Assembly: GCA_964565925.1 (NCBI GenBank)
Contig: CAZMGV010000001.1
Location: 430,618-494,617 of the forward strand
Origin: an uncultured bacterium
GTDB lineage: Bacteria; JAGRBM01; JAHCIT01
Length of the DNA stretch: 64,000 nt
Reading direction: 5' to 3'
The translations under genes were made by a program, and so were the position numbers. The notes below the pieces were generated by a model that was not told where the DNA came from, ran no database searches, and was given only the letters and a program-made list of their open reading frames with translations. Below are positions 29,631 to 39,750 of the stretch, in pieces (position 1 is the first letter of the stretch; the number at the start of each line of letters is the position of its first letter).

Positions 29631-30449
29631 TCAGGGCATGAAACGCTTGTAATTCTTAGCCAGCAGTTCGCTGGTGAGCACCGGGAACGCGCGCTTGAGA
29701 TAGTCCGTAATGTAGGTCTCCCGGGCGACCAGCACCCGGGCCTCGTTCTTTTCGATCCCCCGGATGATCGCCTGGGCGACGGACGATGGCGGCAGCGTCT
29801 TCTTTTCGAAGAACTTCACCGCCTTGGCCTTCTGCTTGTCGCCGGTCGCGTGGGTGAACCGGGCGCTTTTCACGATATTGGTGTTGATCCCGCCTGGATG
29901 CACCGACGTCACGCCGATATTGAAGTCCGACAGCTCGGCGCGGATCGACTCGCTGAAGCCGCGCACGGCGAACTTGGTGGCGCAATAAGACGCCTGGGTC
30001 GGCAGGCCGATCAACCCGAACATGCTCGAGATGTTGACGATGTGGCCCTCGCCCGCCTGCTTTAAGTACGGCAGGAAGAACTTGCTCCCGTAGACGACGC
30101 CCCAGAAGTTAATGCCGACGATCCACTCGAAATCCTCGATGGAGTGCTCGTCCAGCGGCGCCGTCACCGACACGCCCGCGTTGTTCACGACGATGTTCAC
30201 CTTGCCGTGGGACTTCGCCACTTCGTCGGCGAACGCCAGCATGAGGTCCTTCTTCGAGACGTCCACGACATGACGGGTCACCTTGACGCCGAACGCGGCC
30301 GCCTGCTTGCCGGTTTCGGCAAGGCCCGCCTCGTTCACGTCCGCGATGGCCAGATGCGCGCCGCGCTTGGCGAGCTCCAGCGAGGTCGCCCGCCCGATAC
30401 CGCTGCCCGCGCCCGTCACTACCGCCACACGTCCCCGGAAATCCTTCAT
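29631..30449 (-). CDS. SDR-family short-chain dehydrogenase/reductase
   Basis: TGAGSGIGR cofactor motif and the catalytic tetrad region NNAG...S...YCATK. Start set to MKDFRGR. The ORF extends to 30509. Confidence 0.75.
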   Translation of the reverse strand: MKDFRGRVAVVTGAGSGIGRATSLELAKRGAHLAIADVNEAGLAETGKQAAAFGVKVTRHVVDVSKKDLMLAFADEVAKSHGKVNIVVNNAGVSVTAPLDEHSIEDFEWIVGINFWGVVYGSKFFLPYLKQAGEGHIVNISSMFGLIGLPTQASYCATKFAVRGFSESIRAELSDFNIGVTSVHPGGINTNIVKSARFTHATGDKQKAKAVKFFEKKTLPPSSVAQAIIRGIEKNEARVLVARETYITDYLKRAFPVLTSELLAKNYKRFMP

Positions 30450-30677
30450 CGTCAGTCCCTTTCGCATTCCCGGTGGCGGCACTCCGCACCGGAAGGCGGA
30501 GTATTCCACGTCTTAAGGAAAGAGCAAAAACAGGGGGTTCACATAGGGTGACCATGCGAGCCTGGCGGTAGGGGCGCTGCTTGCTGCGCCTCTACCGCAA
30601 AGCGGGCCCCTGTCGGGTGAGGACATCGCTGAGCGAAGAAGCGTGCCACGGCGCGTCCGTGTGTTACCCTTTTCTCC

Positions 30678-31613
30678 ATGCCGCAGACGTCCCCTACGCC
30701 AGCCGACCTCGACTCCATCTACCGGGAACACCGCCAGTTCCTGTGGGGGCTCACCTACCGGCTCACCGGCAGCACGGCGGACGCCGACGATATCGTGCAG
30801 GAGACGTTCGTGAAGGCCATCGAGAACCCGCCTCCCGACACGGCCAGACCGTGGCGGCCGTGGCTTGTGCGGGTGGCGACGAACCTCGGCATCGACCGGC
30901 TGCGCCGCCGCAAGGAGTCGCCCTACCCGGGTCCCTGGCTCCCGGCGGTGATCGAGACCGCGCCGGGCGACTTCGATCTGGCCGACACGGCCCCGACCCC
31001 CGACGGCCGGTACACCGAACTGGAAAGCGTCACGCTGGCGTTCCTGCTGGCGCTCGAAGCGTTGAACCCCAAGCAGCGGGCGGTGCTGATCCTGCGCGAC
31101 GTGTTCGACTACTCCGTGGCCGAAACGGCGCAGGCGCTCGAGATATCCGAATCCGACGTCAAAACCACCCATCACCGCGCGCGCGGGCTGATGGAAACCT
31201 ACGACCACGCCCGGGTGATCCCGACCAGGGCGCTCCAGCAGAAGGTGCAGGTGGCGCTCGGTAATTTCCTGTCGTGCCTGATGAACCGCGACGCGGCGGG
31301 TATCGAGAAGCTGCTCGCGGCGGACGTGCGGGTGCTCTCCGACGGCGGCGGCGAGTACAGCGCCGCGCGGGTGCCGATTGTCGGCGCCGCCAAGGTGGCG
31401 AAGTTCTACGTCAGCATCAGCGAGCAGAAGGCCGAGGGGATGAACCTGCAGCTGACGTATCTGAACGGCCTGCCCGCCATCGTCATCCGTACCGAGAACC
31501 CGGAGGACGGCACCGCGCCGGTACTGGTCTGGCAGTGCGTGATAGATCAGTCAGGGAAGATCAAAGAGTTTCACAGCGTCATGGCGACGGAGAAGGTGCT
31601 GAGTTTAAAGTAA
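30678..31613 (+). CDS. ECF sigma factor with C-terminal SnoaL-like extension (ECF41/SigJ-type)
   Basis: Sigma2 (DADDIVQETFVKA) and sigma4 (VLILRDVFDYSVAETAQALEISESDVKTTHHRAR) regions. YPGPWLP motif resembling the ECF41 YVGPWLPEP linker. About 110-aa C-terminal extension. No adjacent anti-sigma gene. Confidence 0.7.
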   Translation: MPQTSPTPADLDSIYREHRQFLWGLTYRLTGSTADADDIVQETFVKAIENPPPDTARPWRPWLVRVATNLGIDRLRRRKESPYPGPWLPAVIETAPGDFDLADTAPTPDGRYTELESVTLAFLLALEALNPKQRAVLILRDVFDYSVAETAQALEISESDVKTTHHRARGLMETYDHARVIPTRALQQKVQVALGNFLSCLMNRDAAGIEKLLAADVRVLSDGGGEYSAARVPIVGAAKVAKFYVSISEQKAEGMNLQLTYLNGLPAIVIRTENPEDGTAPVLVWQCVIDQSGKIKEFHSVMATEKVLSLK

Positions 31614-31638
31614 CTCAACCGCTGCTTCGCGGTATATT

Positions 31639-32727
31639 TCATGTGCCCGCCAACTGCCTCTCATCAAAAAGCTGTTCTGGCTTCCGCCATCCGTTTGGGT
31701 ATTCAACTACAGGAGGGAATCCATTGGTTTCGTCCGAAACGCAATTGACGAATGTTTCCTTAGAGATACCTTGCACGTTGCTGAAACCTTGGTATCTAAA
31801 TTGACACATATAAAATCTTGCATTTGTTAAGTTGGCACCGGCGATCGATGTTGAATCCATAGTCACGCCGCTCATTGTGCAATCAGTAAGGTTCGAGCCG
31901 TTGAAATCGACTCCGTACATTACCGCACCAATGAAACTAGCCCCAGTAAAATCGCAATTAGTTAATTTCGCTAACGCCATAATGCATTGTGAAAATTGCA
32001 CATTACGGAAACATAAGCCGTCGAGACGGCCATTCACGATCAGGACTTCTTTTAATTCTGGGCGATATCCGATCGGGTCATTCGCAATATTTCGTCTACC
32101 AATCACAGTTAAGGCGAACTTGATCGCTTCCGGCATTTCGGTTTCAAAAATACTATCTGAATAAACGTCGACGTAATTCAATTCAGTGAGTACTGCACCA
32201 GAGGGTCGCTTGAAAACCTCATGATGGATGTCATCCCATATTCTCCGGTTCCACGACGACTTCCGTCGCACGAATGACGAGAGCACTTCCATGGATGGGA
32301 CATGAAAATCCGTAGCCGATTTTGCGATATGTTCAATTACAAAAATTGCTCCGATTACTTCATCGATTTTATCGCTCGTCAGCATCCGAACGGCTGACTG
32401 AAATTGCTCCGATAATAGTCGACGCTCAGATAACCGATTGTTTTCGACGGCAACGGCAGCCTGGCTAAGTGCGGCAGCAGCCTGCTGCTCCGCAGCTTTT
32501 ATCCGTCTCCAAGCAAACACGAAACCGATTAGTGCAGCTATTACTCCAAGGACTTTCAAGTAGAAATCCATGAAGTCTTTCAGCGTGATTTTTTCGGAAT
32601 CGACCGGCCCGATTATGGACTGCAAAACGAACCAAAGAAGAAGAACGACGCAGATCAAGAAAAACCCGACCAACAAGGTCTGGGATAAATCGATTTTGAC
32701 GTTATTTTGATCTCTTTGCTCTACCAT
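31639..32727 (-). CDS. membrane-anchored pentapeptide-repeat protein (low-GC island)
   Basis: N-terminal TM helices, a central domain of unknown type, then C-terminal A(D/N)LXX pentapeptide repeats (CDFTGASFIGAVMYGVDFNGSNLTDCTMSGVTM...). Local GC about 47% against about 64% in flanks. Confidence 0.5.
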   Translation of the reverse strand: MVEQRDQNNVKIDLSQTLLVGFFLICVVLLLWFVLQSIIGPVDSEKITLKDFMDFYLKVLGVIAALIGFVFAWRRIKAAEQQAAAALSQAAVAVENNRLSERRLLSEQFQSAVRMLTSDKIDEVIGAIFVIEHIAKSATDFHVPSMEVLSSFVRRKSSWNRRIWDDIHHEVFKRPSGAVLTELNYVDVYSDSIFETEMPEAIKFALTVIGRRNIANDPIGYRPELKEVLIVNGRLDGLCFRNVQFSQCIMALAKLTNCDFTGASFIGAVMYGVDFNGSNLTDCTMSGVTMDSTSIAGANLTNARFYMCQFRYQGFSNVQGISKETFVNCVSDETNGFPPVVEYPNGWRKPEQLFDERQLAGT

Positions 32728-32852
32728 TGCCCATCACTCACGTATCCAAGCTGCTTACGAGGCTGAAACGATATCGCGATCGGTGACTCCGTAATGAAAC
32801 GCAAATAGGTGCGTAAGCAATGCCTAACTAATTCCCAGGTAAAATAGGCATT

Positions 32853-33221
32853 TCAGGAAGGGCTACGTTGCATAAAGCCGAAATCCATAATCCACCGATC
32901 TGGGTCGAAATGGCCTACGAGGTCTCGATTCGCAAGATTAAATACAAAGTCCTGAAGCAACCCTTCATAGCCCGCTTCAAACCCAATATCTTCGCGATTT
33001 TCTACAACCTCGGCCCAGTCGCGTAGATAATCCTCAGTAATGTCACGATCCGTCAATCGCATGAGAAGATTTCTCGCGTCCTTACGAGTGAATAGAACTA
33101 AATCAGCCCTCGAATCCCAACCAAACGATGCCAACTCCTCTTCAATTTCCGAAGGCGGCCTTCGTAAATTGATCAACTCCTCAAGAAGGAGCGTGCGCCT
33201 TGCTAAATCGATGCCATTCAT
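32853..33221 (-). CDS. hypothetical acidic protein (122 aa) in low-GC island
   Basis: Start overlaps the stop of the upstream 82-aa ORF (ATGA). No recognisable domain. Confidence 0.35.
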   Translation of the reverse strand: MNGIDLARRTLLLEELINLRRPPSEIEEELASFGWDSRADLVLFTRKDARNLLMRLTDRDITEDYLRDWAEVVENREDIGFEAGYEGLLQDFVFNLANRDLVGHFDPDRWIMDFGFMQRSPS

Positions 33222-33466
33222 GGGTACTTCTGCTTAACGTGAACGACATTCCCACTAGGGTCATACGTCGTTTTTATATATTTTAGCGTAATACCTGCTC
33301 CATCTACAGTTTTTTCGTAAATTGCCTTAGAGCCGGGGACGATTCCATTTACAGTCGCCTCAAAAACGACACTTCCGTTTGGCAGAGCGTAATTACGGAC
33401 GGATGCGACTGCGTTCGGCAGTTTCGAAACGAAGCGCTTATAATTATTGGTTTGCTGGCTGTTCAA
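33218..33466 (-). CDS. hypothetical small protein (82 aa) in low-GC island
   Basis: TTG start with the palindrome AATTGGC-A-GCCAATT overlapping the start/RBS. No recognisable domain. The coding call is tentative. Confidence 0.3.
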   Translation of the reverse strand: MNSQQTNNYKRFVSKLPNAVASVRNYALPNGSVVFEATVNGIVPGSKAIYEKTVDGAGITLKYIKTTYDPSGNVVHVKQKYP

Positions 33467-33613
33467 TTGGCTGCCAATTCATTCCCGCAATTATTTCGCT
33501 TATATCATATCTGTATATTGTGCGCTAATAAATTCAAGAAGCGCTCAATCCCCTCTCTGTGCGATCCGGCGAGGATAATCCGGTTCCAGCTCGTTCCTTG
33601 GCCGGTTGAGTGC

Positions 33614-34396
33614 CTATCCCGCCGTCAGCAGATCCACGCTCTCTCCGTCGGCGGGAATCTGCACCCGGGAGGCAAGGCCTGCGCTCTCGATACGCGCACT
33701 GAGTTCCGCCCGCGTCACGGGGCAGTGGTTGAGCGCCTCCAGATGGGTCGCGACGACGGCTCCGGGTGAGAGCCGGATAAATTCAAGTATCTCATCAATC
33801 GTCATCAGGATCGGGCGGCCCACATCGAGCTGCGCGCCGCCCGCATGAACAACCGCCACGTCGGGGCGTTCCTGACGGAGCGTCTCTTTCACGCTGCCGG
33901 TCAGAACCGTGTCGCCGCTCAGGTAAAGACTGGGCTCGCCGGGCAGCCGGATCACGTAACCGACACCCGCGCCCATCACGCTGCCGATCCAGCCGTGGCC
34001 GTGGGTGGCCGGTACCGGCAGGATCGTTCCGCCCAGAAACGGGCTGGGGCGGCCAGGCGGCAGTCCAGTGACACGCAGGCCTTTGCCCTTCAGATAGTTC
34101 GCGTCATGGGCGCTGCAGAAGACGGGGATATGGTTGTTAACCAGAAACGATATTCCGTCACCGTCCAGATGATCCTTGTGCCCGCGCTGGCAGTGGGTGA
34201 TGAGGCCGGTCGTCACCATGGGCAGCAGTTTTTCGGCCTGCGGAGGCAGCGGCACGGTCGGATTCCATTTGGGGCTGTGGCGCAGGAACGAGAACGGCGG
34301 AATCCCTCCGGCGTCCGAGAGCATCGGATCGACGAGGATCCGCACACCGGCGGCTTCGACGATGATCGTGGCGTTCCTGAGGTGATGGATTTTCAT
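33614..34396 (-). CDS. MBL-fold metallo-hydrolase
   Basis: HxHxDH-type motif region (THCQRGHKDHLDG) and downstream His/Asp ligands (ATHGHGW, HAGG). About 260 aa. Confidence 0.7.
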   Translation of the reverse strand: MKIHHLRNATIIVEAAGVRILVDPMLSDAGGIPPFSFLRHSPKWNPTVPLPPQAEKLLPMVTTGLITHCQRGHKDHLDGDGISFLVNNHIPVFCSAHDANYLKGKGLRVTGLPPGRPSPFLGGTILPVPATHGHGWIGSVMGAGVGYVIRLPGEPSLYLSGDTVLTGSVKETLRQERPDVAVVHAGGAQLDVGRPILMTIDEILEFIRLSPGAVVATHLEALNHCPVTRAELSARIESAGLASRVQIPADGESVDLLTAG

Positions 34397-34419
34397 TCCG
34401 GCTCCGTATCTGGCTGAAG

Positions 34420-35658
34420 CTAGATCCCCTCGCCCTGCGATCCGGCGAGGATGATCCGGTTGCGGCCCGCTGCCTTCGCCTTGTAGAGCGCCTCGTCGGC
34501 GAGGCGGATCAGGTCGTCGACGCGTTCAACCGGCGCGGCATCACTGGAGGCACCGGCGACCGGAAAACGCACGAGGCCCAGGCTCACCGTCACATGGAAC
34601 GACGTGTGGCCGCCCACGACGATCTGGGTGGTCTCGACACTCTGGCGGCACCGCTCGGCGACCGCCTCGGCCGCCTCCAGACCGGTTTCAGGGAGCAGCA
34701 GGACGAACTCCTCGCCGCCGTAGCGGGCGATCACATCCGTCGTGCGGACCGCGCTGTTCAGCACCGAGGCGATGGTCATCAGCACCCGGTCGCCGATCAG
34801 GTGGCCGTACTGGTCGTTGATCCGCTTGAAATAGTCCACGTCCAGCACGGCGAAACTGAGCGGCCGGCCGTAGCGCCGCGCGCGCTCGAACTCCGCCTCG
34901 AACAGCTCCAGGAAGTGCCTGCGGTTGAACAGGCCGGTCAGGCCGTCCTTCGTGGCGAGGTCACGGAACTCGCCCTCGCGCTCGTACCACCGGCGGTACA
35001 TGACGGCCGAAAATATCCAGCAGGGGGCCATGAACCCGATGGCGATTCCCACGAACGCATACCGCCACGCGGGCGCGGCGTGGCCCGAGGCGTCCACCGG
35101 GAACGTATGGAACAGCGGGGCGTAGGGGATGAGCCCCGCTTCCATCGCAAAACCGGCGGCGATCAGCCCCGCGAACGACAGGAATATGGCGGAAGCGACA
35201 AGCCGCTGGTCGTGCAGCGCCAGCGCCGCCGTCCCGGCCGCCGCGAGAAACATCCAGTACGGGGACGAATAGAGCCCGGACCAGTAGAGCAGGAACGCAT
35301 AGGTGAAGGCCCAGGCGTGGGTGAATACGATCTGGAGCGCCCAGGCGCTGCGGGTGCCCTCCGTCACGCGGCGGGCGGCCACGGCGAGCAGCGCCCACAG
35401 GGCGATGACCGCGACCGACAGGATATAGACGACGTTGAGACCCTGCTGCGAAAAGTGCGCGCCGCCGTCAAGCCTCGCCAGCCACAGGATCAGCAGCAGC
35501 GAACTCAGATGCCCGCCGACCGAGATGTCGCACATGATCGCGCAGCGGCGGGCCGGGGTTTCCTCCAGCAGCCCCTCGACGTACTTCCGTATCCGCGACC
35601 AGAGCCCGCTGGCTGGCTCCGGTCCGGATTCGATGGGCACTTCGTGAACCGGTGTCAC
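34420..35658 (-). CDS. diguanylate cyclase (GGDEF) with N-terminal integral-membrane sensor domain
   Basis: Six or more TM helices then the GGDEF domain (RYGGEEFVLLL active site; DGLTGLFNRRHF, LDVDYFKRINDQYGH). Confidence 0.8.
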   Translation of the reverse strand: MTPVHEVPIESGPEPASGLWSRIRKYVEGLLEETPARRCAIMCDISVGGHLSSLLLILWLARLDGGAHFSQQGLNVVYILSVAVIALWALLAVAARRVTEGTRSAWALQIVFTHAWAFTYAFLLYWSGLYSSPYWMFLAAAGTAALALHDQRLVASAIFLSFAGLIAAGFAMEAGLIPYAPLFHTFPVDASGHAAPAWRYAFVGIAIGFMAPCWIFSAVMYRRWYEREGEFRDLATKDGLTGLFNRRHFLELFEAEFERARRYGRPLSFAVLDVDYFKRINDQYGHLIGDRVLMTIASVLNSAVRTTDVIARYGGEEFVLLLPETGLEAAEAVAERCRQSVETTQIVVGGHTSFHVTVSLGLVRFPVAGASSDAAPVERVDDLIRLADEALYKAKAAGRNRIILAGSQGEGI

Positions 35659-35659
35659 G

Positions 35660-36142
35660 TCACTTCCCCTGCCGCTTCCACTCGCCGCTGCGGCCCCCGC
35701 TCTTTTCCATTAAATAGATGTCTTCGATGACAATACCACGTTCGACCGCTTTCAGCATGTCGTAGACCGTGAGAGCGGCCGCCGATACGGCGGTCAGCGC
35801 CTCCATCTCGACCCCTGTCTCGCCGGTGGTCCGGACGGTCGCCTCGATGGTGACGATCCCTTTTTTATCGATGCTCGCGTCCACCTCGACCCCGGTAATG
35901 GGGATCGGATGGCAGAGCGGGATCAGGTCGGAGGTTCTTTTCGTCGCCTGGATGCCGGCCAGTATCGCCACCTGCAGGACGTCGCCCTTTTTCGCCTTCC
36001 GGGTACGGACAAGATCAGCGGTGGTTTTGGACAGCCGCACATGGGCGACGGCCCGGGCGATCCGCCGGGTTTTCTGCTTCTCCGAGACGTCCACCATCCG
36101 GGGTTTGCCGCGCGAGTCCATATGGGTGAGCTTTTTTGCCAT
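35660..36142 (-). CDS. moaC: cyclic pyranopterin monophosphate synthase
   Basis: MoaC signature ([16 protein letters not shown]...IPLCHPIP...[27 protein letters not shown]). Confidence 0.85.
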
Positions 36143-36207
36143 GCCGGTTCGTACCCCTGCCCCCAGCCTCGCGGCAAGCGGTGGAAATCAGGGCGCTTTG
36201 GCGTTAT

Positions 36208-39200
36208 ATGGCAGGGCCCCGGGTCGGAGCCCGGTCCGGAGTATCCGCCCTGAAGAACGTGGTTAAAAACTCGCCCTTCCTCGACGCCCTGAACTCCCGC
36301 GTGCTCGTGTTCGACGGCGCCATGGGCACGATGATCCAGACCTATCATCTCACGAAGGACGACTTCGGCGGCAAGCAGGGGGCGAACGACTACCTTGTCC
36401 TGACGAAACCCGCCGTCATCCAGGAGATCCACTCCAAATACCTGGAAGCCGGCGCCGACGTGGTCGAGACCTGCACGTTCCAGTCGACCCGCCCGCGACT
36501 CGAAGAGTGGGGCCTGGGCGACAAGGTGGCCGAGATCAACATCAAGGCGGCGCGGCTCGCCCGCGAAGCGGCCGACAAGTTCTCCACCCCGGACAAGCGC
36601 CGGTTCGTGGCGGGCTCCATGGGACCGACCGGGTTCCTGCCCAGTTCGTCCGACCCGACGCTGTCGAACATCACCTTCGACCAGCTCGAGGAGATTTTCC
36701 GCGAACAGGCGGCGGCACTGGCGGAGGGCGGCGTGCACGCGTTCCTGATCGAGACGTCGCAGGACATCCTCGAAGTGAAGGCGGCCGTCGCCGGCTGCGA
36801 GCGGTTCCGCAGGGAGTCGGGCCGCTACGACATTCCGGTCATGGCCCAGATCACGCTGGACCAGTCCGGGCGTATGCTGCTCGGCACGGACGTGGCGACG
36901 GCGCTCGCGATCCTCGAAGAGCTGCCGATCTCCGTCATCGGCATGAACTGCTCGACCGGCCCGCAGGAGATGCGGGAATCTGTGCGGTACCTGGGCGAGT
37001 TCTCCACCGTACCTATATCCGTCATTCCGAACGCCGGTATGCCGGAGAACGTGGACGGCGAGGCCCACTACAACCTGAAGCCGGACGCGCTGGCGTCCGA
37101 GCTGCACGATTTCGTTACGAAGCACGGCATTGCCATCGTGGGCGGCTGCTGCGGCACGACGCCGGAACATATCCGCAAGCTCAGCCAGTCGGTGGCGGGG
37201 CTCAAGCCCGGCAAGCGGCCCAGCTTCCAGCTCCATGTGGTGGCCTCCCCGATCAAGCCGCTGAAACTGGATATCGACAACCCGCCGGTGGTGGTGGGCG
37301 AGCGGCTGAACGCGCAGGGATCGCGCAAGGCCAAGGACGTCATGCTCACCCGGGACTACGACGCGCTCGTGGCGCTGGGCAAGGAACAGGTGGACGACGG
37401 CGCGCACATGCTCGACATCTGCACCGCCATGACCGAAGCGCCGCTTGAGAAAGAACTGATGCTCACGCTGGTCAGGCGGCTGTCGCAGGAAACCGACGCG
37501 CCGCTCATGGTGGACTCCACCGAAGTGGACGTGATCGAGGCGGCGCTGAAGGTGATCCCCGGCCGGGCGATCGTGAACTCGATCAACCTGGAGGGCGACG
37601 GCTCGCGCCTGCACAAGATCTCGCCGCTGATCGCCAAATACGGGGCGGTCACGGTCGCCATGACCATCGACGACTCGGACCCCGAGATCAAAGGCATGGC
37701 GAAGACGGCGGCGCACAAGCTGCGGGTCGCGCAGAAGATCACGAAACTGTGCTCCGAGCAGTACGGCCTCGAACGCGACCAGCTCGTCTTCGACGTGCTG
37801 ACGTTCACGCTCGCCACGGGCGAGCCGGAGTTCCGCCGCTCCGCCATGGAGACCATCGAGGGCATCCGGGCGATCAAGAAGGAGCTGCCGGGCGTCTTTA
37901 CGGTGCTCGGCGTCTCGAACGTATCGTTCGGACTCACGCCGCCGGCCCGCCGGGTGCTGAACTCGACCTTCCTCTACCACTGCGTGCAGGCGGGGTTAGA
38001 CCTCGCCATCGTGAACGCCAAGGAGATCATCCCCTATACGGAGATCCCGAAAGAGGCGCGCGACATCGCCGAGGAGATGATTTTCGACAAGGCGGAAGAC
38101 GCGCTCCCCCGCTACATCAAGCATTTCGAAGGCGCCGCCGGGGCACCGGCCACCGACCCCCGCAAGGCGAAGATCGACCCGTCGCTGCCCGTCGAGCAGC
38201 GGATTCACGAGCATATTCTGAAGCGCGTGAAAGAAGGGGTGATTGAGGCGCTCGAAGAAGCCCGCACGAAGAAGGGCCTCGCCCCGGTCGAGATCATCAA
38301 TACGATCCTGCTGCCCGCCATGAAGGACGTGGGCGACCGCATGGCGACGGGCGAAATCATCCTGCCGTTCGTGCTCCAGTCGGCGGAGGTGATGAAGCGC
38401 GCGGTCACGCACCTGGAACAGTATCTGGACAAGGACCAGTCGGTGTCGAAGGGCAATGTGGTGATCGCCACCGTCTACGGCGACGTACACGACATCGGCA
38501 AGAATCTCGTAAAGACCATCTGGTCGAACAACGGCTACACGGTACATGACCTCGGCAAACAGGTGCCGCTCAACACGATCCTCGCCAAGGCGCAGGAGGT
38601 GGGCGCGGTCGCCATCGGCCTCTCGGCGCTGCTCGTCACCACCTCCAAGCAGATGCGGTTCTGCATCGAGGAACTGGACAAGCAGAAGCTCCCCTACGTG
38701 CTGATCGTGGGCGGGGCCGCCATCAACCGGGAATACGTCTCGCGGATCTCGATCACCGACGGAGAAAGCCCCTACCGGAACGGCGTCTTCTATTCGAAGG
38801 ATGCCTTCGAAGGGCTCCATCACCTGAACGCGGTCGCCGACAAGAAGACCAAGGCCGCCTATGTCGCCGACAACCTCCGCGACAACCAGGAACGCTACTT
38901 CGCGTCGCTGAAGAAACAGGAGAAGCAGAAGGCGGCGCTGGCGAGCGCCCCCGCCGGAAAGAGCGCCGTCCGCCGCGACGCGCCGGTGCCGAAGCCGCCG
39001 TTCTGGGGGCCGAAGGTGCTGGCCGACGTGGACCTGAAAGAGGTGTTCCCGCTCATCGACAGGAAGGCGCTGTTCGGCCACTCGTGGGGGGTGCTCAAGC
39101 GCAAGCGGTCGCAGGAAGAGTACGAGAAGGATCTGAAAGAAACTTTCGAGCCGCTGCTCGCAGACCTTCAGGCGCAGGTGATCAGGGACAAAACCCTCCA

Positions 39201-39750
39201 GCCCCGCTCGGTGTACGGATATTTCCCCGCCTGGGCGGACGGCAATTCGGTCGTCGTGTTCGATCCGAAGAACCCCGACAGGGAGCTGGGCCGGTTCAGC
39301 TTCCCCCGGCAGCCGGACCGTGAATACCTCTGCCTGTCCGATTTCCTCTCACCGAAAGAGCGCGGCGTGAAAGACGTGCTGGCGCTGGACGTGGTCACCG
39401 TCGGCGACCGGGTGAGCGAAGTGTGCAAGGCGCTGGACGCCAGGGGCGACTACACGGGCAGCCTGTACCTCCACGGCCTCGGCGTGCAGACGGCCGAAGC
39501 GATGGCGGAATACATCCACCAGAAAATCCGGAAGGACCTCGGGATCGCGGGCGGCCAGCGCTACTCGTTCGGCTACCCCGCCTGTCCGGATCTCTCGCAG
39601 CAGAAATTCCTGTTCGACCTGCTCGGCGCCGAGAAGGCCATCGGTACCGTACTGACAGAGGGCTTCCAGATCATCCCCGAGGCCTCCACGGCGGCGTTCG
39701 TGTGCCATCACCCGGAAGCCCGCTATTTCAGCGTGACGAATACCGACTGA
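36208..39750 (+). CDS. metH: cobalamin-dependent methionine synthase (four-module MetH)
   Basis: Hcy-binding (LVFDGAMGTMIQ), pterin-binding, B12-binding (GDVHDIGKN, DxHxxG) and C-terminal AdoMet reactivation modules are all present. Start set at MAGPRVG. The ORF opens at 36136. Confidence 0.85.
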   Translation: MAGPRVGARSGVSALKNVVKNSPFLDALNSRVLVFDGAMGTMIQTYHLTKDDFGGKQGANDYLVLTKPAVIQEIHSKYLEAGADVVETCTFQSTRPRLEEWGLGDKVAEINIKAARLAREAADKFSTPDKRRFVAGSMGPTGFLPSSSDPTLSNITFDQLEEIFREQAAALAEGGVHAFLIETSQDILEVKAAVAGCERFRRESGRYDIPVMAQITLDQSGRMLLGTDVATALAILEELPISVIGMNCSTGPQEMRESVRYLGEFSTVPISVIPNAGMPENVDGEAHYNLKPDALASELHDFVTKHGIAIVGGCCGTTPEHIRKLSQSVAGLKPGKRPSFQLHVVASPIKPLKLDIDNPPVVVGERLNAQGSRKAKDVMLTRDYDALVALGKEQVDDGAHMLDICTAMTEAPLEKELMLTLVRRLSQETDAPLMVDSTEVDVIEAALKVIPGRAIVNSINLEGDGSRLHKISPLIAKYGAVTVAMTIDDSDPEIKGMAKTAAHKLRVAQKITKLCSEQYGLERDQLVFDVLTFTLATGEPEFRRSAMETIEGIRAIKKELPGVFTVLGVSNVSFGLTPPARRVLNSTFLYHCVQAGLDLAIVNAKEIIPYTEIPKEARDIAEEMIFDKAEDALPRYIKHFEGAAGAPATDPRKAKIDPSLPVEQRIHEHILKRVKEGVIEALEEARTKKGLAPVEIINTILLPAMKDVGDRMATGEIILPFVLQSAEVMKRAVTHLEQYLDKDQSVSKGNVVIATVYGDVHDIGKNLVKTIWSNNGYTVHDLGKQVPLNTILAKAQEVGAVAIGLSALLVTTSKQMRFCIEELDKQKLPYVLIVGGAAINREYVSRISITDGESPYRNGVFYSKDAFEGLHHLNAVADKKTKAAYVADNLRDNQERYFASLKKQEKQKAALASAPAGKSAVRRDAPVPKPPFWGPKVLADVDLKEVFPLIDRKALFGHSWGVLKRKRSQEEYEKDLKETFEPLLADLQAQVIRDKTLQPRSVYGYFPAWADGNSVVVFDPKNPDRELGRFSFPRQPDREYLCLSDFLSPKERGVKDVLALDVVTVGDRVSEVCKALDARGDYTGSLYLHGLGVQTAEAMAEYIHQKIRKDLGIAGGQRYSFGYPACPDLSQQKFLFDLLGAEKAIGTVLTEGFQIIPEASTAAFVCHHPEARYFSVTNTD

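Follow-up and report, generated by a model that had tools for sequence, protein, structure and literature searches.

The question raised by this locus is why the 3' end of a cyclase gene is present twice, once in place and once on the far side of an MBL-fold hydrolase gene. The cyclase gene (34420..35658, minus strand) lies in a 64-kb stretch of DNA, hereafter the window, and encodes a membrane-anchored GGDEF diguanylate cyclase of 412 aa counted from a GTG start (Pfam PF00990, E 1.6e-47); public records give it a later start and 406 aa. Upstream stands moaC (35660..36142, minus strand), the conserved anchor of the block, which is syntenic with metH in all the relatives examined. The final 24 codons of the GGDEF gene together with its stop, i.e. 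EALYKAKAAGRNRIILAGSQGEGI plus TAG, form the copy that we call R2 (34420..34494, minus strand), the working 3' end according to the ORF list, the alignment and the translation. The other copy, R1 (33544..33616, minus strand), spans the corresponding positions and is a degenerate non-coding duplicate of R2, as recognised by alignment, shuffles and repeat search. Over 75 columns the two copies display 57 matches, 16 mismatches and two 1-nt gaps (57/73 aligned bases). The original prediction had described direct repeats of about 42 bp, about 85% identical; the two 43-nt segments concerned do have 36 of 43 bases in common (84%), and the true length is greater. The translations proposed for them, NRIILAGSQGEGI followed by the stop (34421-34463) and NRIILAGSHREGIER (33545-33586), are correct.

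A chance origin of the repeat is rejected: its 26-nt core occurs exactly twice in the 64 kb, for 0 expected from 100 shuffles. The repeat search returned an ungapped direct pair of 51 nt, 33543-33593 / 34419-34469, at 82% identity and with a spacing of 876, and the added 29-nt part is significant alone (0/20000 shuffles and 7/20000 random 29-mers of the window score equally well). By sensitive blastn no third copy was found in the window, and no homology above shuffles extends beyond the repeat, either into the MBL gene or past the position of the stop. On the minus strand the 5' end of R1 overlaps the MBL stop codon (33614-33616), and its 3' end adjoins low-GC DNA. An assembly artefact is rejected as well: the independent Logan assembly for run SRR14271333 (L001, 6182 nt) matches 30887-37068 at 100% identity, so that the arrangement was reproduced by a second assembler from the same reads.

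Relative to R2, R1 carries two 1-nt deletions, both frameshifting; its stop is changed to GAG and its GRNR motif to SWNR. The divergence amounts to about 22% (K about 0.25), the differences are spread 7/2/7 over codon positions 1/2/3, the changes are AT-biased (10 GC>AT vs 2 AT>GC, p = 0.019), and the GC content is 0.59 for R1 vs 0.68 for R2. Because of the frameshifts, the loss of the stop and of GRNR, the AT bias and the spread over codon positions, R1 clearly reads, at the level of sequence, as a dead and drifting copy, and R2 as the functional one. The earlier view of the first copy as an out-of-gene relic thus holds, R1 being non-coding, frameshifted and without stop. The homology takes in sequence coding for the GGDEF domain (EALYKAKAAGRNR), which places its origin in a gene end and not just in a common hairpin.

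Between the copies there is, as had been noted, a single gene and nothing else but a 23-nt spacer (34397..34419, minus strand), which runs from the GGDEF stop to the MBL start and in which the ribosome-binding site GGAG of the MBL gene can be read. This gene (33614..34396, minus strand) encodes a SaxA-like MBL-fold metal-dependent hydrolase of 260 aa (Pfam PF13483), matched over its full length by PDB 6BRM (SaxA) with an E-value of 9e-29. We found 2868 homologues, of which the nearest two have 71% and 62% identity; the genomic contexts of these two are unrelated to our locus and have no synteny in common with it, and no GGDEF relic follows the MBL homologue in either L082 or L083. PHROGs holds one family of unknown function for this protein, and the window contains no paralogue or fragment of it. 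A foreign origin of the gene by composition is unsupported: its GC3 of 0.77 is low, yet inside the range of host genes (0.71-0.90). Two small resemblances may be mentioned here. The 12 nt ahead of the MBL start are similar to the corresponding stretch before the 62% homologue of L083, which is weak evidence. Besides, GAGGCGCTC, 9 nt encoding EAL, is identical at an internal MBL site and at the start of R2; as the trace of a junction this identity was rejected, and we judge it to be the same tripeptide in the same preferred codons.

Is this arrangement old or recent in the lineage? In sister lineages, whose nucleotide sequence is about 80% identical, moaC directly adjoins one of two genes, either SDR or the convergent sigma gene. 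The latter, an ECF-type sigma factor gene by its Pfam match (30678..31613, plus strand), forms here the distal limit of the lineage-specific block, and its orthologue lies 10 nt from moaC in L092-L094. The block of about 4 kb made of GGDEF, MBL, R1 and the island described below is therefore specific to this lineage, and the junctions of moaC with SDR or sigma genes in the sisters designate the site downstream of moaC as a hotspot of gene gain. In L095 the N-terminal part of GGDEF is likewise found conserved downstream of moaC. In the closest relative moaC is followed by the start of GGDEF, and the contig stops before the GGDEF 3' end. The search for an empty site was therefore possible at a coarse level only, at which sister lineages are devoid of the entire block; a GGDEF site free of MBL was not found, the contig of the closest relative ending inside GGDEF. 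Adjacency of GGDEF and MBL was seen in 0/6 other loci (three of MBL relatives or of the same organism, three of GGDEF-family relatives). The closest full-length GGDEF homologue has 53% identity; neither this family relative nor those at about 40% have an MBL gene behind GGDEF or any synteny in common with our locus. A scan of genome contigs with the whole GGDEF protein gave 80 loci, all of them generic GGDEF-domain matches (36-49% identity, residues about 200-410) without an orthologue among them, and scans of metagenome contigs with the GGDEF 5' motif of the subclade and the moaC motif of the clade gave no matches. Direct observation covers the repeat and how far it extends, the direction in which it decays, which genes lie between its copies, and the restriction of the block to this lineage.

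Beyond R1 lies an island of low GC (31600..33543, minus strand, delimited by composition), at about 44-46% vs 65% for the genome. It comprises an orphan Rhs-type C-terminal toxin domain ORF of 82 aa (33218-33466) and an immunity-like ORF of 122 aa (32853-33221), both assigned by homology, and a 2-TM pentapeptide-repeat protein of 362 aa (31639-32727) assigned by pentapeptide Pfam matches, all on the minus strand. The 82-aa ORF matches the C-terminal 80 aa (residues 398-477) of an RHS core protein on the Leptospira weilii plasmid NZ_CP092208.1 at 45% identity (E 4e-20), and the 122-aa ORF matches the gene directly after that RHS gene at 32% identity (E 2e-15). The pair—homologue of an Rhs toxin tip, then directly homologue of its cognate immunity gene—has the order of an orphan Rhs toxin-immunity module. 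In-frame stop codons stand just upstream of the toxin ORF; there is no rhs core at this locus, the neighbour on that side of the ORF being R1/MBL. PADLOC returned no matches; PHROGs gave none for the two small ORFs and weak pentapeptide-repeat matches for the 362-aa protein.

It had been suggested, as one of the options, that this island was inserted together with the hydrolase. We do not retain this part of the original prediction: the island is outside the repeats, no repeat copy, the sign of a tandem att arrangement, is present at its far end, and the compositions are very different (GC3 0.47 for the island vs 0.77 for MBL). For these reasons the island appears to be an acquisition separate from that of MBL; it probably arrived later than the MBL insertion, in the same hotspot.

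For the duplication itself, the explanation that we favour, and hold to be somewhat likelier true than false, is that R1 is a non-functional scar left by the homology-anchored insertion of MBL behind GGDEF. The MBL gene with its own ribosome-binding site would have been placed directly behind the GGDEF stop, the GGDEF 3' sequence serving as homology. Two routes may be conceived. A circular intermediate with MBL joined to a 3' segment of GGDEF could have integrated by a single, Campbell-type crossover, doubling the homologous segment around the insert; or a homologous join on one side could have been combined with an illegitimate one on the other, pushing the old gene end downstream. Afterwards R2 would have been kept under selection as the gene end, and R1 would have drifted toward AT and gained its frameshifts. 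Minimal substrates of RecA-type recombination measure tens of nucleotides, so that 72-75 nt is judged long enough. In favour of this reading stand the unique direct repeat that takes in GGDEF-domain coding sequence, the decay of R1, the spacer and single ORF between the copies, and the lack of any recombinase, terminal inverted repeat or significant fold. The unrelated contexts of the MBL homologues, with no GGDEF relic behind them, the GGDEF-family relatives without a following MBL gene, and the gene-gain hotspot shown by the sister lineages speak for it too. We infer that MBL was inserted rather than ancestral, as we do for the recombination route. Some observations speak against this scar reading. 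No donor or circular intermediate was found; the composition of MBL, within the host range, gives no foreign mark. R1 gives way to the island only a few bases from where the stop once stood, so that either the original spacer was very short or the position is coincidental. Finally, a K of about 0.25 implies the long survival of a useless 72-nt relic.

Among the rivals, the one that survives best, although we regard it as unlikely, is a tandem duplication of a unit formed by the last 72 nt of GGDEF, the spacer and MBL. It would give GGDEF-MBL-R-MBL', of which the second MBL was then deleted or overwritten by the island. The direct repeats are indeed 876 nt apart, exactly one such unit; the AT-biased decay suggests copies that were near-identical at the outset, and the island junction at the end of R1 is a possible deletion endpoint. 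This scenario however takes at least three events: MBL arrives, the unit is duplicated, and a deletion ends exactly where the stop used to be. Behind R1 there is no remnant of another spacer or MBL 5' end, and the window has no MBL paralogue or fragment to offer.

Slightly less credible again is the possibility that R1 is the remnant of another GGDEF gene, whether a second one in tandem (a paralogue) or an older allele since replaced, and that its body was lost by deletion or gave way to MBL; this corresponds to the alternative already raised for the locus, a recombination between duplicated GGDEF genes. R1 holds domain-coding sequence besides the tail, and the identity is about 65% in the domain part vs about 84-90% in the tail (raw percentages), two features that would suit such an origin. 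But the best-matching part is the gene-specific, non-conserved tail (IILAGS..EGI), which indicates that R1 derives from this gene itself or from an allele almost identical to it, rather than from a paralogue that had diverged. Moreover the 7/2/7 distribution and the AT-biased changes are those of post-functional decay, unlike two functional alleles diverging, and no second GGDEF gene is present in the window.

Site-specific integration is, in our opinion, an improbable origin: R1 and R2 would be the attL and attR of an element that inserted at the GGDEF 3' end, brought a replacement gene end with it and was then reduced, like a CIME, to one cargo gene. The geometry is the classic one, direct repeats holding the 3' end of an intact target gene; R2 completes the GGDEF ORF, R1 is the displaced copy, and the tail of R2 contains an imperfect inverted repeat. 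Against this, neither integrase nor excisionase is found between or beside the repeats, and the flanks are housekeeping genes syntenic with the relatives. No recombinase of the tyrosine or serine type was detected there, the neighbours being moaC, GGDEF, the Rhs-CT/immunity pair, the pentapeptide protein, sigma and SDR. The supposed element would measure 800 nt with exactly one RBS and ORF, a third repeat is lacking at the far end of the island, and 22% divergence plus frameshifts would disable the att function. We do not file the locus with the integrase-type elements, whose defining feature is absent. The search for attC- or att-like sites that had been advised revealed no attC-like fold and no recognisable att pair. 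An integron cassette was rejected, for lack of an attC-like fold downstream of MBL (z = -0.5 vs shuffles) and of an integrase among the neighbours. One could go further and imagine that the GGDEF 3' tail with its hairpin is the site of an unknown recombinase acting in trans, which captures single-ORF cassettes behind gene ends and duplicates about 70 nt of target; we give this very little credence. In that case, which we find just as far-fetched, R1 and R2 would genuinely terminate a minimal mobile cassette whose landing pad is the hotspot downstream of moaC.

That R1 and R2 would be functional RNA or DNA elements after consecutive genes, such as stabilising or terminating hairpins of which one overlaps the GGDEF end by chance, is most doubtful: a possible 13-bp stem in the R2 tail does end at the stop codon (z = -1.26, not significant vs shuffles) and two ATC>ATT changes in R1 keep its outer pairs as G-U, but the folds are no better than those of shuffles (z = -0.5 to -1.3; R1 alone z = +0.5), two mismatches affect the stem core in R1, there is no U-tract and no minus-strand terminator call near either copy, Rfam gives no match at E <= 1 over 30500-36500, and a hairpin leaves unexplained the homology into GGDEF-domain coding sequence.

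Under the scar reading, the stretch behind the MBL gene should be annotated as a GGDEF pseudogene fragment, and not as a regulatory element or the end of a mobile element. The operon-like order moaC-GGDEF-MBL would be a derived, lineage-specific assembly within a small hotspot of gene gain. In uncultured bacteria, scars of this kind are useful as a natural archive of gene insertions anchored by homology. Most likely this one is ordinary, and a single instance leaves the current understanding unchanged.

How does the locus compare with known systems? With insertions of transposons or IS it shares direct repeats around an insert. The target-site duplications of these elements are 2-14 bp. A transposon-type target duplication is rejected here, the duplicated segment being 72-75 nt, without terminal inverted repeats or transposase; no inverted repeat pair bounds 33617-34419 either. 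Thus, of the earlier proposal that the hydrolase was inserted with target duplication, insertion behind GGDEF remains the most economical account, and the transposon-type event does not. Integrative elements at gene 3' ends, e.g. e14 and phage 21 at icd or the islands at tRNA and tmRNA genes, are bordered by direct repeats that hold the end of the target gene and restore it. Our locus differs from them by having no integrase or excisionase, a single-gene insert and degenerate repeats.

Closer is the Campbell-type integration: in an E. coli experiment, a circular molecule that integrated by a single crossover ended up flanked by two copies of the homologous segment (109-950 bp; PMC3240628). Likewise, the locus has direct repeats of 72-75 nt on both sides of a 0.8-kb insert, and the upstream gene is intact; on the other hand, the repeat is under the 109-950 bp of the experiment and its copies are about 22% diverged. 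The other parallel is the C-terminal displacement by homology-facilitated illegitimate recombination, a model put forward for rhs, cdi and T6SS effector loci (PMC5361080); in its lines on this model, that article refers to Jackson et al. 2009 (PMC2935791) and de Vries and Wackernagel 2002 (PMC122324). The tips of rhs, cdi and T6SS loci are variable and selectable toxin domains with immunity genes, whereas the tip displaced here duplicates 72 nt from the end of the same gene and the cargo is a hydrolase gene. In both cases, nevertheless, the old 3' end has been moved downstream of new DNA, where it stays as an untranslated remnant: at this locus, R1 immediately behind the MBL stop codon.

The direct repeat of the original prediction is found where it was described (33545-33586 and 34421-34463, 36 of 43 bases identical), and a repeat search recovers the pair, called here R1 and R2, as an ungapped 51 nt at 82% identity with a spacing of 876 nt. 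The 64-kb window contains exactly two copies of its 26-nt core, versus 0 expected from shuffles, and a sensitive blastn of the window gave no third copy. The repeat is real, but its extent had been drawn too short: the similarity reaches 33616 in R1 and 34494 in R2 with two single-base gaps, and the extra 29-nt part is significant alone (matched by 0 of 20000 shuffles and by 7 of 20000 random 29-mers of the window). Of the 75 columns of the full alignment, 57 are matches, 16 mismatches and 2 gaps. On the minus strand R2 (34420-34494) reads EALYKAKAAGRNRIILAGSQGEGI and a stop, which corresponds to the final helix and strand of the GGDEF domain followed by a tail specific to this gene. R1 (33544-33616, minus strand) starts on the stop codon of the MBL-fold hydrolase gene (33614-33616) and ends within few bases of a GC drop from ~65% to ~44%; no similarity was found into the MBL coding region or beyond the stop position. 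Across 30887-37068 the Logan assembly of run SRR14271333 matches the window at 100% identity, so that the arrangement is reproduced by a second assembler from the same reads.

With R2 as its 3' end the diguanylate cyclase gene is intact (412 aa, membrane-anchored; Pfam GGDEF, E 1.6e-47), and the decay lies in R1: two frameshifting deletions, GAG at the stop position, and the invariant GRNR motif turned into SWNR. With R2 as reference, R1 displays 10 GC>AT versus 2 AT>GC changes (binomial p = 0.019) and a GC content of 59% versus 68%; the differences between both copies number 7, 2 and 7 at codon positions 1, 2 and 3 respectively. Judging from these base changes, the pattern of R1 is that of an unselected drift with AT-biased mutation rather than that of a pair of functional alleles, which indicates that most of the divergence arose in R1 after it ceased to be a gene end.

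As originally claimed, the MBL gene is the sole gene between the repeats: one ORF and a 23-nt spacer, the latter carrying a GGAG ribosome-binding site. The ORF encodes a 260-aa MBL-fold hydrolase (Pfam Lactamase_B_3) matching over its full length the isothiocyanate hydrolase SaxA (PDB 6BRM, E 9e-29).

An insertion with target duplication, as first proposed, agrees with the geometry and with the decay of the 3'-end copy; on the other hand the repeat is too long for a transposon target duplication, and terminal repeats and transposase are absent. We infer, as the most economical explanation, that a recombination event anchored on homology to the GGDEF 3' end brought the MBL gene in immediately past the GGDEF stop codon, which would have duplicated the last 72–75 nt of GGDEF. 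The observed geometry is exactly what would result if a circular molecule with a homologous segment entered the chromosome by a single crossover; in E. coli, single-crossover duplications of 109–950 bp have been recovered by experiment (PMC3240628). Otherwise, a one-sided homologous event plus an illegitimate join might have shifted the old gene end downstream, a route proposed for T6SS effector arrays and for the displacement of rhs C-termini (PMC5361080). The AT-biased decay suggests that R1 and R2 were near-identical at the time of the event, which favours a donor in the same or a near-identical genome over a diverged donor.

A tandem duplication of a repeat-MBL unit, after which the second MBL gene was lost, would require more events than this recombination. 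R1 could also be what remains of an additional or earlier GGDEF gene, along the line of the duplicated GGDEF genes initially envisaged; however the gene-specific tail is the best-matching part, and the decay pattern speaks against it as well. A degraded integrase-type element would have an insert of one ORF only and no recombinase: neither transposase nor integrase was found between or around the repeats, and the insert has no pair of inverted repeats at its ends. As for a functional hairpin element, it would leave the homology with a domain-coding sequence unexplained and lacks structural support, since the folds of both repeat regions are no better than shuffles, the terminator search gave nothing on the minus strand beside R1 or R2, and Rfam gave no match. 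An imperfect 13-bp hairpin lies in the R2 tail (GGAUCAUCCUCGCC...GGCGAGGGGAUC, 34421-34458, minus strand), ending exactly at the GGDEF stop codon and indistinguishable from background in shuffles; that of R1 is a weakened version, both ATC>ATT changes retaining pairs as G-U.

The closest MBL homologues (71% identity in a Bdellovibrionota MAG, then 62%) lie in unrelated contexts, and neither is followed by a GGDEF fragment. The nearest full-length homologues of GGDEF (53%, followed by ~40–44%) also occupy other contexts, with neither moaC upstream nor an MBL gene downstream. True relatives were located by a moaC search. In a first group (L088-L091; moaC 82% aa, ~80% nt over metH-moaC), moaC is joined directly to an SDR gene, which in the window is at 29631-30509. 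In a second (L092-L094; moaC 78% aa), one contig of which shares its sample of origin with the window organism, a convergent ECF sigma gene stands 10 nt past moaC, and in the more distant locus L096 a convergent histidine kinase lies downstream. The closest relative, L095, is a 950-nt ENA contig (82% nt identity, moaC 90% aa) in which a clear homologue of our GGDEF gene starts 10 nt after moaC (VTPTIGEV...RIRKYVEGILDEP against VTPVHEVP...RIRKYVEGLLEET). The moaC-GGDEF pairing is therefore older than the split from the L095 lineage; the contig itself stops short of the GGDEF 3' end. Scans of metagenome contigs with a GGDEF 5' motif and a moaC motif gave nothing more. The four neighbours found downstream of moaC in related lineages, i.e. 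SDR, convergent sigma, convergent histidine kinase and GGDEF (window 30532-35671 versus L088-L092, L095 and L096), designate this position as a synteny breakpoint. Compared with the sister lineages, the block formed by GGDEF, MBL, R1 and the adjoining low-GC island (about 31600-35659) is an addition specific to the window genome.

R1 and R2 stand at a Jukes-Cantor distance of ~0.25, with a large error as it covers 73 sites only, and the 4-fold sites of moaC give 0.60 between the window genome and the closest relative sampled. The duplication is old and, within the large error of 73 sites, probably occurred after the split from this relative or near it.

Two other features mark the moaC locus. 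Compared with five relatives, moaC in the window has three extra codons (35660-35671, minus strand): the ancestral stop (TAA/TGA/TAG) is CAG and reading continues to TGA, the extension overlapping a Shine-Dalgarno-like GGGGAAG ahead of the GGDEF GTG start. Besides, the sigma-moaC-metH segment (window 30678-39750) is inverted in the relative GCA_964621525.1 (L092, 6278-11423), in a neighbourhood with HicB- and PemK-type genes.

The proposal that the hydrolase and the low-GC island form one insert does not hold: the island is outside the repeats, and its composition (GC3 0.46–0.48) is far from that of MBL (0.77) and of the host genes GGDEF, sigma and metH (0.87–0.89). It carries an 82-aa ORF and an overlapping 122-aa ORF (32853-33466, minus strand, 44–47% GC). 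Both have homologues on a Leptospira weilii plasmid: the former shares 45% identity (E 4e-20) with the last 80 residues of an RHS repeat-associated core protein, the latter 32% (E 2e-15) with the small gene right after that RHS gene. By these matches they are an orphan toxin-immunity pair of the Rhs type; no rhs core gene exists at the island locus. Where the 82-aa ORF starts there is a perfect inverted repeat of 7 nt, AATTGGC-T-GCCAATT (33466-33480), and just upstream a sigma-70-like promoter match (33517 to 33490, minus strand); the island may have its own promoter and operator. The gene at its far end (31639-32727, minus strand) encodes 362 aa, with two TM helices at the N-terminus and pentapeptide repeats at the C-terminus. 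The protein has plasmid homologues in Streptomyces and cyanobacteria (21–29% identity); its match to the Hailong effector HalA model is weak and far sub-threshold (E 0.0024, 17 bits, cutoff 250), and PADLOC gave no match. Compared with its L092 orthologue, the window sigma gene is short by ~7 codons and finishes with AT-rich codons (CTGAGTTTAAAGTAA; 31598-31640), its original 3' end having probably been replaced by the island insertion. Past the sigma gene comes a hairpin with a T-rich tail (31618-31633), which it shares with the pentapeptide gene in a tail-to-tail arrangement. We regard the island as a separate insertion, probably a later one, into the same hotspot.

The main value of these data is the correct annotation of R1 as a GGDEF pseudogene fragment; they also provide a small record of an operon-like moaC-GGDEF-MBL assembly within a gene-gain hotspot. 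Among known systems, the att-like or attC sites initially suggested found no counterpart: an att pair is not demonstrable as the recombinase is absent, and an integron cassette would call for an attC-like structure and a platform, neither being found. R1 and R2 behave like the scar of an insertion-duplication or C-terminal displacement, of which they are a further instance, real but ordinary.
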